Assembly (NCBI GenBank): GCA_000092065.1
Contig: CP000582.1
Direction: 5' to 3' (one strand)
DNA from: Ostreococcus lucimarinus
Lineage: Eukaryota
DNA: 64,000 bases
Position numbers and translations under genes: made by a program. Below the pieces are notes generated by a model that saw only the letters and a program-made list of their open reading frames with translations, did no database searches and was not told where the DNA came from. Position 1 is the first letter of the stretch, and each line of letters begins with the position of its first letter. Of this stretch, positions 18,672-23,997 are shown one piece after another.

Positions 18672-19391
18672 CTAAAGTTCATCTCGAATGTCTCGCGCGA
18701 TCGCCTGGGCGTCCATCTTCGGCGGATACCGACGAACCACGCGCCCGCGATCGTCTACTAAAAATTTCGCAAAATTCCACTCCGCCGGCGCGCCGCCCGC
18801 GGTGAGCTGCGCGAACATCGGATTGTGCGCCAAATCCAGCGCGGGTTCGAATAACACATCCATGACGTCCGCGAAATCGCGTTTGATTTCCTCATTCGTT
18901 CCTTGCTGATGTCCGAAGTCGTCGCTCGGAAATCCCAATATGCGCAACCCGTCGCCGAATTCTTCGCGAAGCGCGCGAAAGCCCTCGACGTTGGATTGCT
19001 TGTATCCTCAGTGCGATGCGACGTTGGTGACGAGCGTGAACGCGCCTCGCGAAGACTCGCGTTTGGCGACTGGAAATCCCAGGAGCGCTTCGTCGCGCAC
19101 GACGCCGCCGTCGATGTCGTGAAGCACGCCGCTCAACACCGCTTCAAAAACCCCCAGCGCGTCTCGCGCCGCCAGCGCGTCCGCGGAGACGAACGACGCG
19201 GTTTGCAGCGCGCGCGCGTGCGCGCGAGCGTCCGTGAACGGGCGCACGACGACGTGAAGGAAGAAACCACCCAGAACGGTGGTTAGAAGAATCAAAACGA
19301 GTGGGCCGTGACGCGCGCGATTCGCGCGCGCCGTTCCGGGATAGGCGGCGGCGAACGGCGCGGTGCCGCTTGATTCGACGTCCGGAGGCAT
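18672..19391 (-). CDS. GPX: Glutathione peroxidase selenoprotein (in-frame UGA = Sec at 19008-19010)
   Basis: Joining ORFs 19008..19391 and 18672..18947 through the TGA gives AFTLVTNVASH-U-GYKQSNVEGFRALREEFGDGLRILGFPSDDFGHQQGTNEEIK...WNFAKFLVDDRGRVVRRYPP. The TGA sits exactly at the catalytic Sec/Cys of the NVAS(U/C)G motif, and the frame is conserved on both sides. There is no GT-AG alternative. Confidence 0.8.
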
Positions 19392-19465: not shown

Positions 19466-20791
19466 CTACAGGCTCCGACCCGCCTTTGCGGACGCGAGCT
19501 GACCTTCCCAGTTGTTTCTAAATTTCCTATAAATCGCGAGCGCGGCCAAGGCGTCTTCGGCGGGATCGTGAGCATCTCCACACTGAATGCTTAGCGCGCA
19601 AAAGTCACGCGCCAGATGCCGCAAGCGACGAGGCTTGCGGAAGTGCGGCGGACGCAACAGCGGCCGCCATTTCGCGGTATCTCGCGTGTCTTCCCGTGGA
19701 TGGTGGAGCTGTAAAGCCGAAAAGTCGTTCTCCAGGGCGTGGCCGACGACGATGCGACCTTTTATGAGTTCAGCAACGTCGCGCTTGACGTCGGCGAATT
19801 CGCGCGCGCTCGACCCTTCGACGTGACGAGGAAGGATGCCGGAGACGTGCGTGCGATAGTCCGTGACTGTTTTGTACGCGCGTGAATAACTCAAATACAC
19901 TGTGTTTCCGTATTCGTTGATCACGCAGACCTGCGCGAGCATGGATTCCACGCCTCCTTCGCCGACGCCGACCATCTCGCAATCGAGCGCCAACACGTCG
20001 GTGACGGAGCAATCGTCGCTGAATGGCCTCGGTCGTTCGAGTTTGGTGCGATTCTCTAACCGTTGCACGTTTTCGTAAACGTCCCTGTGCGACTTTTTCC
20101 GCGCCTCACTCACGCCCGTGCCATCCAAACATCCGTTTCCGAACGGGTCTTCGCGCGCCGTGTAAAATCGCGCGACTTCTGCGACGACTTCGCGTCTCCA
20201 AAGCGCCTTTAAAACGCGCGAAAAATTCTGAAAAAATCCAGCGCTCTCAAACGTTGCTCGCGGAATAAATCCCACCATCGACGCTTCTTCGCTCGCTCTC
20301 GAACCGACCAAAGCGAGCTGATCCGCGCGCGCGTTCGCCGTGTGCGCTCCGCCTTTATGCGCCGCCACCTTCGCGATCAAAGTCTTCTCCCGCCTCTTAC
20401 TCAGCACGAACGCCGTCAGCACCGTCACCGCGTTCACAGCGATTTCGTCCACGTCTCCCCTCGCTATTATCTCCACGCACTTGCACACGTATCGCGAATC
20501 CGACATCACCGCCAACTTTTCGTCTCTCGGATGTCGAACGAGCGCCGCGAAAACCGCGCACATCTCCACCGCGTTGATATCGCACGATTTCCTCGCGCAC
20601 GACCCCGCGAAATTCAAATGATGTCCAAACTTATACCACACGCCCACGCCGCTCGCCGCGCCGCTCGCGTCGACGCTTCCGTCGACGTAACACGCGTCGT
20701 CGCCCGCGCTCGCGCCCCGTCGACGCCCCACCCCTCCGCCTCCGCGCCCGCCGCTCGCGGACGCCCGCGCGTCGCACCGTCGAAACCGCAT
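19466..20791 (-). CDS. Fusion protein: RNase H-like domain plus DEDDh 3'-5' exonuclease (REX4/ISG20-like)
   Basis: N-terminal DDACYVDGSV...INAVEMCAVFAAL...VMSDSRYV...AAHKGGAHTANARADQLA (RNase H DEDD fold). C-terminal LALDCEMVGV...GHALENDFSAL...HDPAEDALAALAIY (DEDDh). Start trimmed to the ATG at 20791; the upstream part of ORF 19466..22006 is antisense to the exosome gene. Confidence 0.65.
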   Translation of the reverse strand: MRFRRCDARASASGGRGGGGVGRRRGASAGDDACYVDGSVDASGAASGVGVWYKFGHHLNFAGSCARKSCDINAVEMCAVFAALVRHPRDEKLAVMSDSRYVCKCVEIIARGDVDEIAVNAVTVLTAFVLSKRREKTLIAKVAAHKGGAHTANARADQLALVGSRASEEASMVGFIPRATFESAGFFQNFSRVLKALWRREVVAEVARFYTAREDPFGNGCLDGTGVSEARKKSHRDVYENVQRLENRTKLERPRPFSDDCSVTDVLALDCEMVGVGEGGVESMLAQVCVINEYGNTVYLSYSRAYKTVTDYRTHVSGILPRHVEGSSAREFADVKRDVAELIKGRIVVGHALENDFSALQLHHPREDTRDTAKWRPLLRPPHFRKPRRLRHLARDFCALSIQCGDAHDPAEDALAALAIYRKFRNNWEGQLASAKAGRSL

Positions 20792-21140
20792 CGCGAACGC
20801 CGCGCGGACGCGCGGTATCGCGCGTCCGACGGCGCGACACGCGAAGAACTCGACGACGAACCAAAAGATGCGCAGTCGCATCGCGAGCCGTTCGAGGCGC
20901 GTCGTCGCGCGCGTCGCGCGCGGCGTCGCGTCCATCGCGCGCGCGACGCTCGAACCTCGCGCGCGTCGCGTCGCGTCGCGTCGCGGCTCGCCGGCGCGCC
21001 GGCGCGCCGCGCGCGCGCGAGGTGCGAGCGCGCGAGTGCGGCGGCGGCGCGTCACTCCGCGCCGCGACGCGCCGCGACGCGCGCCGGCGACCGCGCGGCG
21101 CGACGCGGACGCCGCCGAGACGCGCGACGCGTCGATCGCG

Positions 21141-21953
21141 ATGGAGTACGTCAGCTTCGAGGGCTTGCGCGCGGACGGACGACGGGCGAACGAGTGTCGA
21201 CGCGTCCGGCACGAATTCGCCGTCGACGCCGACGCCGACGGGAGCGCGCGGTTCGAGATCGGGAACACGGTCGTGCAGGCCACGGTGCGAGGACCGCGCG
21301 AACGGCGCGGCGGACGCGCGGAGGAGGGCGCGAGCGACGCGTGCGCGGTGACGGCGACGTACGCCGCGAGCGGGGCGGCGGCGGACGGCGCGAACGGACG
21401 ACGAAAGGGGGATCGAAAGGCGCTCTCGCACGCGGAGACGCTGACGAAAATACTGGATAGGGTGGTGATGACGGAATTGATGCCGCGGAGCGCGATCGCG
21501 GTGACGTGCACGGTGCTGTGCGACGACGGAGGGGCGAAGGCGGCGAGCGTCAACGCGGCGACGTTGGCGCTGGCGGACGCGGGAGTGCCGCTGAGGGACA
21601 CGGTGGGCGCGGTGACGTGCGGATACCTCGATGGAGAGGTGTTGATCGATCTCAATCGCGAGGAAGAGCGCGGACGAGGGCCGGAGCTGTTGATGTGTTC
21701 GACCGGCGCGGGCGCGACGAGCCGCGCGGCGGCGGCGAGCGACGACGAGGAGGAAGAGGACGAGGGCGTGGATATCTCGGGCAGAGAAATCATCGCCGAG
21801 GAGCTCGATCGAGGGAAAACGACGATGGAAACGTACGATGCGATGCACGATCTCGCGCTCGCGGCTTCGGCGGTGATATCGGCGCGCATGCGCGAGGCGA
21901 CGCTGGAGCGCACGCGTTCGCTCGCCGCGACGCGCGCCCTGGAGAAGTTTTGA
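21141..21953 (+). CDS. Exosome complex RNase PH-like subunit (Rrp41/Rrp46/Mtr3 class)
   Basis: GLRADGRRANECRRV...ADGSARFEIGNTVVQATVRGPRE matches RNase PH domain 1. ATG at 21141 (MEYVSFEG). Confidence 0.7.
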   Translation: MEYVSFEGLRADGRRANECRRVRHEFAVDADADGSARFEIGNTVVQATVRGPRERRGGRAEEGASDACAVTATYAASGAAADGANGRRKGDRKALSHAETLTKILDRVVMTELMPRSAIAVTCTVLCDDGGAKAASVNAATLALADAGVPLRDTVGAVTCGYLDGEVLIDLNREEERGRGPELLMCSTGAGATSRAAAASDDEEEEDEGVDISGREIIAEELDRGKTTMETYDAMHDLALAASAVISARMREATLERTRSLAATRALEKF

Positions 21954-22136
21954 CTCCGCGCGTCGACTCGTCTCGACCCGACCGCCGCGTCGTCATCAAA
22001 TATCATATTAGTTCAATCAGCGCGCGCGAGCCTCGAAATCATCACCGCGACGCGAGCCGTCGATCGCCGCCGCCGCGTCCCGAACCCGAACCGTCCCGAG
22101 CGTCGCCTCGACCGCACACCGCGCCGTTCCGGCCCG

Positions 22137-22346
22137 ATGCCCGAATCCAGCGCGCGCTCCCGCGACGCCGTCTCCGGCTCGTCCGACGTGTTGTCGAGCA
22201 GCAATCGCGGTCGACGCAAGCGCGCGCGCGCGGCGGACGACGTCACGGGACCGAGTTTGTTGGGCTTCGTGCAGGTGGACGTGCGGTCGCTCGACGCCGC
22301 CGCGGTGCGCGCGCCCAAGTACGAGGAGCCGTTGGAGTGCGGACAG
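22137..22346 (+). CDS. Rai1/DXO decapping exoribonuclease, exon 1
   Basis: Exon ends ...PKYEEPLECGQ and is followed by the GTGCGTGAG donor. It joins exon 2 in frame, giving YEEPLECGQVSKRRDERLTTYDATNLRRL, similar to the DXO N-terminal motif. Confidence 0.65.
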
Positions 22347-22563
22347 GTGCGTGAGACGATTTCGCGCGCGCGGGCGCGCGGGCGACGCGCGCGGAGGCGT
22401 GCGACGACGGCGTGAGGAAGATTGCGTAGAATTCGGCCCGGGCGCGAGCTAACTGTCGCCGCGGCGCGCGACGGCGCGATTCGTGGGCGCGTTCGCGAGC
22501 GCGCGCGAGGTGCGCGCGAATGACTGAAATGCATCGACGCGGAATGTCGAGTCGCGCGCGCAG
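22347..22563 (+). other. Spliceosomal intron (GT-AG, 217 nt) of the Rai1/DXO gene
   Basis: Donor GTGCGTG at 22347 and acceptor gcgcgcgCAG at 22561-22563. Phase 0. Conserved protein sequence on both sides. Confidence 0.65.
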
Positions 22564-23997
22564 GTGAGCAAGAGACGGGACGAACGATTGACGACGTACG
22601 ACGCGACGAATTTGCGGCGGCTGCGCGGCGTCAACGCCGGCGCGGGCGCGGATCTCAATCAAGGATTCGGCACGTTTCGAGATCGCGATCGGCGAGAGAT
22701 TTATCCGGCGCCCGTGCACGTGATATTTGGTGCGATCGAGGCGAGCGGGCAGACTAAAGTGTTAGAAGACGTGGACGTGATCACGTGGCGAGGAAACATG
22801 AGCAAGTTGCTGACGACGGCGTGGAACGTCTCCGAGGCTTGGACGATGGAGGCCGAATTGGTCAACAACAGGACGATCGTTTTGAACGTCAAAGAAACGG
22901 AGGAAGGGTTGCGAAAGGCGCTCACTCGCGACGGGAGAGACGAGCGGATGTGTTACTGGGGATACGCTTTCGAGGAGGCCGCGTGCTCGGAGAAGCCGTT
23001 CGAGGAACCGGTGGATTGCATGGAATGTTTTTGCTGCGTCGTCAAGACGAAAATGGGTGATTTAAACGTCTTAATGGCTGGAGAAGTCGATTGTTTCGAA
23101 GGTGACGCCGAGCTGGCGAATTACGTCGAGTTAAAGACGTCGAGGGTGATGAACGACGAGCGACAGGTGAAACGTTTTGAAAAAGAAAAGCTCTTGAAGT
23201 GGTGGGCGCAGTCGTTCGCGCTGGGTGTAAGGAGAATAATGGTTGGATTTCGCGACGACCACGGGCGCGTGGTGAAAACGCAAATGTTAGAGACGCTCAA
23301 GTTACCGGGATACGTCGTCAAGCATGCGAACTCGTGGACGCCCAAGGACGCTCTTCGATGCGCGTCAGCGGTGCTGACGAAGCTCAAAGAGTTACTCGCC
23401 GACGAACCCAGCGGGACGCGAGTGCGAGTTGAGTACGAACCGAAAAAGGCGAAGCATCGCGTGAATTTCATTCGAGATGATTCGATCCCTGACTTTTTAC
23501 CCGCCGACGCGCGCGCGAAACTCATGAACGACGGGTCCTGGCGCGAGAGAGGACCGCAGCCTACCGCGAGGCCAACTTCCGCTTCGGAGCCGCCGCGAGA
23601 TGCGCCAGCGCCCGAACTTTCGGAAACTGCGTCCGCGATGAGCATTCGGGCGCGAACAGAGGGCAGAACGAACAGAATAGAGTACATCCGCTCGCTCGGA
23701 CCGGCGGCGCTTTTGTACATGCAAGGCAAAGACCCTCGAAGAACGTTGCGAGGACGCGTGGACGACGACACGATGGGTGGTATCGGCATCGACCCTTCGA
23801 TTTGGATACAACAAAAAGCCAACTACACCGGTATCGACGCCCAAACGAGCCCACAGATGATGAATTATGATCACAAAGCGGCGCCGGCGTCGTCGGCGAA
23901 ATCGAGCGGCGCGCGGCGCGCAAGTTCTTCCGGTGTCGGCGACGCGCACGATCGCGCGTCAACGGAAAATAGCGATCGCGAAAACTCACAAAATTGA
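22564..23997 (+). CDS. Rai1/DXO decapping exoribonuclease, exon 2
   Basis: ITWRGNMSKLLTT, GYAFEEAAC, AGEVDCFEGD...YVELKTSRV, KLLKWWAQSF. The ORF-track 'M' at 22564 is a GTG codon immediately after the acceptor. Confidence 0.8.
   Translation: MSKRRDERLTTYDATNLRRLRGVNAGAGADLNQGFGTFRDRDRREIYPAPVHVIFGAIEASGQTKVLEDVDVITWRGNMSKLLTTAWNVSEAWTMEAELVNNRTIVLNVKETEEGLRKALTRDGRDERMCYWGYAFEEAACSEKPFEEPVDCMECFCCVVKTKMGDLNVLMAGEVDCFEGDAELANYVELKTSRVMNDERQVKRFEKEKLLKWWAQSFALGVRRIMVGFRDDHGRVVKTQMLETLKLPGYVVKHANSWTPKDALRCASAVLTKLKELLADEPSGTRVRVEYEPKKAKHRVNFIRDDSIPDFLPADARAKLMNDGSWRERGPQPTARPTSASEPPRDAPAPELSETASAMSIRARTEGRTNRIEYIRSLGPAALLYMQGKDPRRTLRGRVDDDTMGGIGIDPSIWIQQKANYTGIDAQTSPQMMNYDHKAAPASSAKSSGARRASSSGVGDAHDRASTENSDRENSQN

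Follow-up and report, generated by a model that had tools for sequence, protein, structure and literature searches.

A conserved algal REX4-type exonuclease with a built-in RNase H1-type domain in Ostreococcus lucimarinus

The gene described here lies on the minus strand of a 64,000-nucleotide stretch of the Ostreococcus lucimarinus genome (contig CP000582.1, assembly GCA_000092065.1), hereafter called the window, to which all positions refer. It encodes an RNase H type 1 domain followed by a DEDDh 3'-5' exonuclease domain of the REX4 type in one open reading frame (ORF). The protein is an algal variant of REX4 that carries an RNase H1-type domain in the same chain. It is conserved, but the databases list it only as 'RNA exonuclease 4', and a literature search found no published description of an RNase H–REX4 fusion. 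The coding sequence, established by translation and a codon check, spans 19466-20935 and comprises 489 codons and a TAG stop codon at 19466-19468. It is probably an intron-less single nuclear gene for a bifunctional nuclease of about 489 amino acids (aa). Based on gene-fusion ('Rosetta stone') logic, the protein would be a single-chain version of the human REXO4–RNase H1 pair, that is, a combined endo- and exonuclease acting on R-loops. A probability of roughly 0.6 is assigned to this interpretation.

Two nuclease domains in one reading frame

The original prediction, made from the DNA sequence alone, described an uninterrupted frame of 441 codons, running from 20791 to 19466, in which an RNase H module precedes a REX4/ISG20-type exonuclease. 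The translation of this frame is free of stop codons and gives the same 441 aa as quoted there. Both domain assignments of the prediction are correct, with matches well above what chance would give. In the following, the positions of Pfam matches refer to this 441-aa protein and the residue numbers of catalytic sites to the 489-aa protein.

The RNase H type 1 domain covers residues 79-215 (20291-20701, minus strand). As the original prediction had expected from a Pfam check, the N-terminal half matches the RNase_H family (PF00075; E-value 9.8e-15, 55.4 bits against a cut-off of 25.8, aa 34-161), and the fold is further upheld by a profile search against solved structures and by an AlphaFold model compared with Foldseek. 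The RNase H sequence has diverged so far that a search of the PDB with the N-terminal 309 aa as a single sequence returned nothing relevant. A profile built from 16 RNase H sequences, searched against the same database, matched the catalytic domain of human RNase H1 (2qk9) with an E-value of 1.8e-14, E. coli RNase HI with about 3e-10 and retroviral RNase H with about 5e-8. The model superimposes on human RNase H1 bound to a hybrid (2qkk) with a template modelling (TM) score of 0.73-0.75. The algal domain shares its fold and its D-E-D-D active site with eukaryotic RNase H1 (2qk9/2qkk) and bacterial RNase HI, and it has the stretch 'G.GV.Y..GH.LN' after the first strand in common with human RNase H1. 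In the window, the tetrad consists of D85 (20681-20683), E124 (20564-20566), D146 (20498-20500) and D205 (20321-20323), and the domain also has H193 and N201. According to the codon check, all nine catalytic residues of the two domains are intact.

A profile search with the RNase H domain in 5.8 billion proteins found no close stand-alone relative. The matches were mostly fragments of the same fusion family, together with a few weak stand-alone RNase H matches (E-values 1e-7 to 1e-4). The domain thus appears closest to eukaryotic RNase H1, and its donor lineage is not narrowed further. A retroelement origin was considered and rejected, as the protein has no further Pfam domain, the neighbours are housekeeping genes and human RNase H1 scores above the retroviral enzymes. 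The NCBIfam models gave only generic DEDDh and RNase HI matches below their cut-offs.

The exonuclease domain covers residues 312-475 (19511-20002, minus strand) and is supported by Pfam and by structure matches. The C-terminal half matches RNase_T (PF00929; E-value 6.1e-6, 27.3 bits against a cut-off of 24, aa 268-421), and the motifs by which the original prediction had recognised a REX4/ISG20-type DEDDh exonuclease are the catalytic ones: D318 and E320 of Exo I (19976-19984), D404 of Exo II (19724-19726) and H456 and D461 of Exo III (19553-19570), all confirmed by the codon check. When compared with the PDB by sequence, this half matches ISG20L2 (7yw5, E-value 7e-27) and ISG20 (1wlj, E-value 2e-22), and much more weakly PAN2 and SDN1. 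ISG20L2 and ISG20 are also the nearest solved folds (TM scores of 0.83-0.91, 36-37% identity), with TM scores of 0.89-0.91 and a root-mean-square deviation of 1.7-1.8 Å for 7yw5 and a deviation of 4.1 Å for 1wlj. Both are vertebrate paralogues with different N-terminal regions and no RNase H domain, and ISG20 is interferon-induced and antiviral. No solved chain with both domains was among the Foldseek matches.

Outside the fusion family, plant, fungal and animal proteins annotated as 'RNA exonuclease 4' make up nearly all named homologues, with 40-50% identity in this domain. The rest have generic labels, apart from one ISG20L2. The same range of identity applies to REX4/REXO4 proteins such as yeast Rex4p and human REXO4/XPMC2H, whose DEDDh motifs are intact in the algal protein, and a REX4 protein from Prunus (P0035) has the identical 'DDCSVTD' sequence ahead of Exo I. 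In a neighbour-joining tree of the exonuclease domain, the fused proteins fall inside the REX4 cloud, with low support. By its closest named relatives, the exonuclease half belongs to the REX4 group rather than to REX1/3, REXO2, PAN2 or ISG20. The difference from canonical REX4 lies at the other end of the protein. Nine plant, fungal and animal REX4 proteins that were inspected have a basic, K/R-rich N-terminus of low complexity, most of them with 'NW..LQ', and no RNase H domain, whereas the algal protein has a helical extension and the RNase H domain in place of this region. Human REXO4 carries a nucleolar signal in its N-terminal part (PMC11741406).

Apart from the two nuclease domains, three further regions can be distinguished. 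The AlphaFold model was computed with 21 homologues as input and has a mean predicted local distance difference test score (pLDDT) of 78 and a predicted TM score (pTM) of 0.55. Residues 1-60 (20756-20935, minus strand) form a conserved N-terminal extension, delimited by the model and the alignments, with predicted helices at 13-36 and 41-51 and a short strand at 54-57. The pLDDT over residues 11-60 is 86-95. The hydrophobic to amphipathic helix RIFWFVVEFFACRAV of this extension recurs in every aligned family member, including those from haptophytes and the pelagophyte, and no Pfam family was matched by the extension in the window protein or its homologues. Dimerisation, packing between the domains and membrane association are candidate roles. 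Between this module and the RNase H domain lies an RGG-like, Gly/Arg-rich loop, GGRGGGGVGRRRG (residues 61-78, 20702-20755, minus strand), which is predicted to be disordered with a pLDDT below 50; G/R-rich stretches at this place occur in green-algal members only. The linker between the two nuclease domains (residues 216-311, 20003-20290, minus strand), described from the secondary structure of the model and the alignments, contains three predicted helices and, in Ostreococcus-like members, a conserved GNGC(I/L)DG motif. Its last part is the REX4-type 'RPxP..DDCSVT' stretch that leads into Exo I.

The N-terminal module is decisive for the choice of the start codon. Three in-frame ATG codons are candidates, at 20935 (489 aa), 20881 (471 aa) and 20791 (441 aa). 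The first is used by the database gene models P0001 and P0093, and the second by the UniRef entry A0A7R9XPI7 from Ostreococcus sp. 'lucimarinus' (471 aa). Since residues 13-57 are conserved and confidently folded, and a start at 20791 would remove this module, translation likely starts at 20935 or 20881. The uninterrupted frame of the original prediction is thus retained, while the start codon probably lies 30-48 codons upstream of 20791. The 441 queried residues are identical to those of P0001, and the N-terminal part of P0001 shows a single difference from the window, M for I at position 40 of the 489-aa protein. No intron is required, as full-length homologues can be aligned with the ORF over its entire length.

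The length of the ORF alone is weak proof of a gene, because the DNA is GC-rich (about 63% guanine and cytosine in the window) and the minus-strand frame closed by the stop codon at 19466-19468 has 846 codons without interruption, as far as 22006, running antisense through the neighbouring gene. The part upstream of the fusion gene (20936-22006, minus strand) adds a further 357 open codons antisense through the exosome gene RRP41, an Ala/Ser/Arg-rich pseudo-extension. Part of it is taken in by at least one database gene call of the prokaryotic style, P0095 (529 aa, beginning with V).

Distribution and origin of the algal family

The same architecture, which the original prediction had proposed to look for in other genomes, recurs in independent genomes, metagenomes and transcriptome assemblies of distant algae. 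A word-indexed search in 5.8 billion proteins found about 30 clusters with both Pfam domains, and an exhaustive search with a hidden Markov model in 1.84 billion representatives found roughly 15-20 two-domain clusters at 50% identity. At lower ranks, the latter search returned thousands of ordinary REX4-like proteins of 200-400 aa, whose match to the profile is confined to its C-terminal part. The named sources of the fusion are Ostreococcus tauri, O. 'lucimarinus', Tetraselmis sp. GSL018, T. striata, Phaeocystis antarctica, Prymnesium parvum and Pelagophyceae sp. CCMP2097. In several cases the complete protein is covered by an ORF from an MMETSP transcript assembly, which is indirect evidence pointing to a single mRNA. 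The fusion had been called unusual in the original prediction. This applies in so far as it is absent from the nine plant, fungal and animal REX4 proteins mentioned above; on the other hand, it is a conserved algal family that is already present in the databases.

In an alignment of 21 members (A1), all have both Pfam domains and the RNase H tetrad is invariant. A second alignment of 19 members (A3) shows the five DEDDh residues and E124 in all of them and D85, D146 and D205 in 17. Conservation differs between the regions: compared with P0001, the database version of the window protein, identity is 50-85% in the exonuclease, 31-61% in the RNase H domain, 12-49% in the linker and 5-38% in the N-terminal extension. 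The exonuclease is the constant core of the family; in most lineages, the RNase H domain accompanies it as an active partner.

The neighbour-joining tree groups 16 of the 19 fused proteins with a bootstrap support of only 43%, and a pelagophyte-like trio lies outside this group, so that a single origin of the fusion is possible. All named hosts are plastid-bearing algae of differing ancestry, namely Mamiellophyceae, Tetraselmis, haptophytes and a pelagophyte. This spread suggests either gene transfer between algae or an ancient origin followed by loss.

Proposed function and competing explanations

In the algal family, an RNase H1-type and a REX4-type enzyme are physically associated, in one ORF without a stop codon between them and in an architecture that is conserved. 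The human REXO4–RNase H1 pair combines the same two enzyme types, but as two gene products that associate non-covalently, whereas the algal protein is one polypeptide. REXO4 came to light through proximity labelling from RNase H1 and binds it directly in pull-downs (Yang et al., Sci Adv 2026, PMC12915616). It prefers RNA-DNA hybrids, in which it degrades the RNA strand in the 3'-5' direction from an end or from an RNase H1 nick, it stimulates RNase H1 in a manner dependent on their physical interaction, and the two enzymes regulate largely the same genomic R-loops (PMC12915616). The term used for this joint reaction is 'endo/exo-cleavage coupling', and natural fusions go unmentioned in that study (PMC12915616). 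The purified truncation of REXO4, del1-219, lacks the N-terminal part (PMC12915616). It is presumably the mutant that lost RNase H1 binding, which would make residues 1-219 the RNase H1-binding region. This region is N-terminal to the human exonuclease domain, on the same side as the RNase H domain in the algal protein.

By analogy, the RNase H domain of the algal protein would nick the RNA strand inside a hybrid, and the tethered REX4 domain would then enter at the nick or at an RNA 3' end and remove the RNA in the 3'-5' direction. The cutting of hybrids followed by 3' trimming that the original prediction envisaged agrees with the biochemistry of the separate human enzymes; for the algal protein, we infer the substrate, the coupling in cis and any link to RRP41. 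The cellular site is probably the nucleus or nucleolus, as for other REX4 proteins. A genomic link between an RNase HI gene and a gene for a DEDDh 3'-5' exonuclease also exists in E. coli, in the divergent pair rnhA–dnaQ. The products of these genes are separate bacterial proteins, and DnaQ is the proofreading subunit of DNA polymerase III and not an RNA exonuclease.

Several findings weigh against a single-chain R-loop nuclease. Canonical eukaryotic RNase H1 has an N-terminal hybrid-binding domain, which the algal fusion does not have: Pfam gave no match to PF01693 in the window protein or in any of the 21 homologues. Nor does the alignment show a recognisable Trp/Lys-rich basic protrusion, and the corresponding Ostreococcus segment, RGDVDEIAVNAV, is short and neither basic nor Trp-rich. 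For these two reasons, the affinity for hybrids is uncertain. In haptophyte members, the alignment places a basic insertion at the position of the protrusion. Moreover, two metagenomic lineages, P0033 and P0171, have lost D85, D146 and D205 of the RNase H site and their RNase H domain is below Pfam detection, while the DEDDh residues and the full architecture are kept. RNase H catalysis is therefore dispensable in at least some lineages. With a pTM of only 0.55, the AlphaFold model does not fix how the two active sites lie relative to each other. Finally, REX4 proteins are also linked to the processing of internal transcribed spacer 1 (ITS1) of the pre-rRNA, which may be the main role of the algal protein as well.

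The last point leads to the alternative that survives best, although it is considered rather unlikely: a plain algal REX4 orthologue that mainly trims pre-rRNA 3' ends (ITS1/5.8S) in the nucleolus, with the RNase H domain as an accessory module for binding, targeting or occasional R-loops of the rDNA. In yeast, Rex4p has a genetic link to ITS1 processing, and the human protein REXO4 resides in the nucleolus and associates with ribosome-biogenesis proteins (PMC11741406). In line with this, the exonuclease is the best conserved part of the family (50-85% identity against 31-61% for the RNase H domain), the two lineages with a degenerate RNase H site keep the exonuclease, and annotation pipelines name every member 'RNA exonuclease 4'. 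The neighbouring genes point in the same direction, with RRP41 in Ostreococcus and, at the locus L002 of a more distant family member, a methyltransferase of the WBS/Bud23 type together with a WD40 protein, but gene neighbourhood is weak evidence in eukaryotes. Furthermore, the presence of the D-E-D-D tetrad in 17 of 19 diverse members argues for catalysis over mere binding, and human REXO4 acts on R-loops together with RNase H1 (PMC12915616). A role in pre-rRNA trimming and the proposed single-chain R-loop nuclease are compatible and not mutually exclusive.

An organellar enzyme that clears primers and RNA:DNA hybrids in mitochondria or plastids, with the N-terminus as targeting signal, is improbable. 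It would fit the exclusively plastid-bearing hosts and the Arg/Ala-rich N-terminus of the Ostreococcus protein, and organellar forms of RNase H1 exist in plants. For human RNase H1, a mitochondrial form has been described (PMC4166229). However, green algae, haptophytes and the pelagophyte all share the conserved residues 13-57, which are structured in the model with a pLDDT of 86-95, and a transit peptide was rejected as an explanation of this conserved and confidently structured region. The Prymnesium protein begins directly at the conserved helix, without a signal-peptide-like leader such as import into a secondary plastid would need, and the exonuclease half groups with nuclear REX4 proteins.

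Even less can be said for an antiviral or anti-retroelement nuclease, in which an ISG20-like exonuclease and an RNase H would act against viral or reverse-transcription intermediates in marine phytoplankton, which is heavily exposed to viruses. ISG20 and its bacterial homologues are antiviral 3'-5' exonucleases (PMC13344964), the distribution of the fusion among marine algae is patchy, and giant-virus contigs have related stand-alone exonucleases with 33-43% identity. Against this stand the nearest named relatives, which are housekeeping REX4 proteins and not ISG20, the syntenic position beside housekeeping genes in four Ostreococcus-like loci, and a PADLOC search, in which only a generic DEDDh model matched below its cut-off and no defence-system signal was obtained. 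A viral vector is likewise unsupported, since the fusion was not found on viral contigs, where only stand-alone REX4/ISG20-like exonucleases occur. One of these, on contig IMGVR_UViG_3300046786_001078 (L007, 2896-3636), is a 246-aa protein that is 43% identical to the algal domain. It directly follows a 587-aa ORF that resembles a major capsid protein by eye.

An artefact, that is, two adjacent genes sharing a frame by chance in GC-rich DNA or a mis-assembly, has a negligible chance. Long ORFs do arise by chance here, as shown by the 846 codons of this frame with their antisense run through RRP41, but an artefact is excluded because the architecture is conserved across independent genome and metagenome assemblies and transcriptomes of distant algae. 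In addition, a separate upstream gene would have no terminator, as the domains are not separated by a stop codon, and the linker is partly structured and, within Ostreococcus, conserved.

That several algal lineages have a conserved natural fusion of exactly these enzymes is independent evolutionary support for a partnership of REXO4 and RNase H1 that is old, functionally important and not peculiar to human cancer cells. The main value of the fusion lies in this evidence and in its use as a model of the partnership. REXO4 has long been poorly understood, and its binding to RNase H1 and the joint clearance of R-loops were shown only in 2026 (PMC12915616). A single polypeptide of about 490 aa would also be a compact model for the hand-over of a nick from endonuclease to exonuclease on an RNA:DNA hybrid. 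Ostreococcus tauri is genetically tractable. The fusion further raises the question of how an RNase H is targeted without a hybrid-binding domain, and it shows that algal genes annotated as 'RNA exonuclease 4' can encode a second catalytic domain that the name conceals.

A more far-reaching version of this interpretation is doubtful. According to it, the fusion is the sole RNase H1-type enzyme and the sole REX4 of these streamlined picoalgae and forms a self-contained R-loop resolvase, in which the tether and the N-terminal module replace the hybrid-binding domain by which canonical RNase H1 is targeted; it would have arisen once and then spread by endosymbiotic or horizontal transfer among green algae, haptophytes and pelagophytes. 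If this were true, the protein would be an independent 'Rosetta stone' proof from evolution that REX4 and RNase H1 are a functional unit of ancient date, and it would offer a minimal system, built from one chain, in which to dissect the coupling of endo- and exonuclease.

Gene neighbourhood

As stated in the original prediction, the fusion gene is divergent from a gene for an RNase PH subunit of the exosome. This neighbour is an RRP41 orthologue of 270 aa that starts at 21141 (21141-21953, plus strand; Pfam RNase_PH with an E-value of 7e-26, human RRP41 with 7e-38). The spacer of 350 base pairs (bp) given for the pair corresponds to 349 bp when counted from the start at 20791 and shrinks to 205 bp with the start at 20935. 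By sequence reading, this CG-rich spacer between the divergent start codons (20936-21140) is a candidate bidirectional promoter. It contains a short run of GACGCG repeats at 20960-21000 (gacgcgacgcgacgcgacgcgcgcg), about 30-50 bp upstream of the start codon at 20935.

The head-to-head pair of RRP41 and the fusion gene is present in four Ostreococcus-like loci, namely the window, O. tauri (L001) and the metagenomic loci L004 and L005, the last with a rearranged far flank. It is absent at the more distant loci L002 and L003 and at the Prymnesium locus L006. The idea of co-regulated RNA-decay functions raised in the original prediction thus starts from a divergent pair that is real, but one that, among the loci examined, only the Ostreococcus-like ones have, and co-regulation through the 205-bp spacer is a weak hint. 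Such synteny is expected among close relatives in genomes this compact. At L002 (7538-11389), where RRP41 is missing, the neighbours include a GPN-loop GTPase, the WBS/Bud23-type methyltransferase and the WD40 protein, which matches several ribosome-biogenesis beta-propeller families.

On its other side, RRP41 adjoins a gene for a RAI1/DXO-type nuclease (22564-23997, plus strand; Pfam RAI1 with an E-value of 6e-83). Within 4.6 kb (19466-23997), the fusion gene on the minus strand and the RRP41 and RAI1/DXO-type genes on the plus strand form a trio of RNA-decay genes, which is also found in O. tauri (L001) and at L004.

On the minus strand at 18672-18947, an ORF of 91 aa with the motif WNFAKFLVD..GRVVRRY resembles the C-terminal part of glutathione peroxidase by eye and matches no Pfam family at an E-value of 0.001 or below. 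The O. tauri gene at the corresponding position encodes a 212-aa protein without a Pfam match. A bestrophin-like gene lies downstream of the fusion gene.

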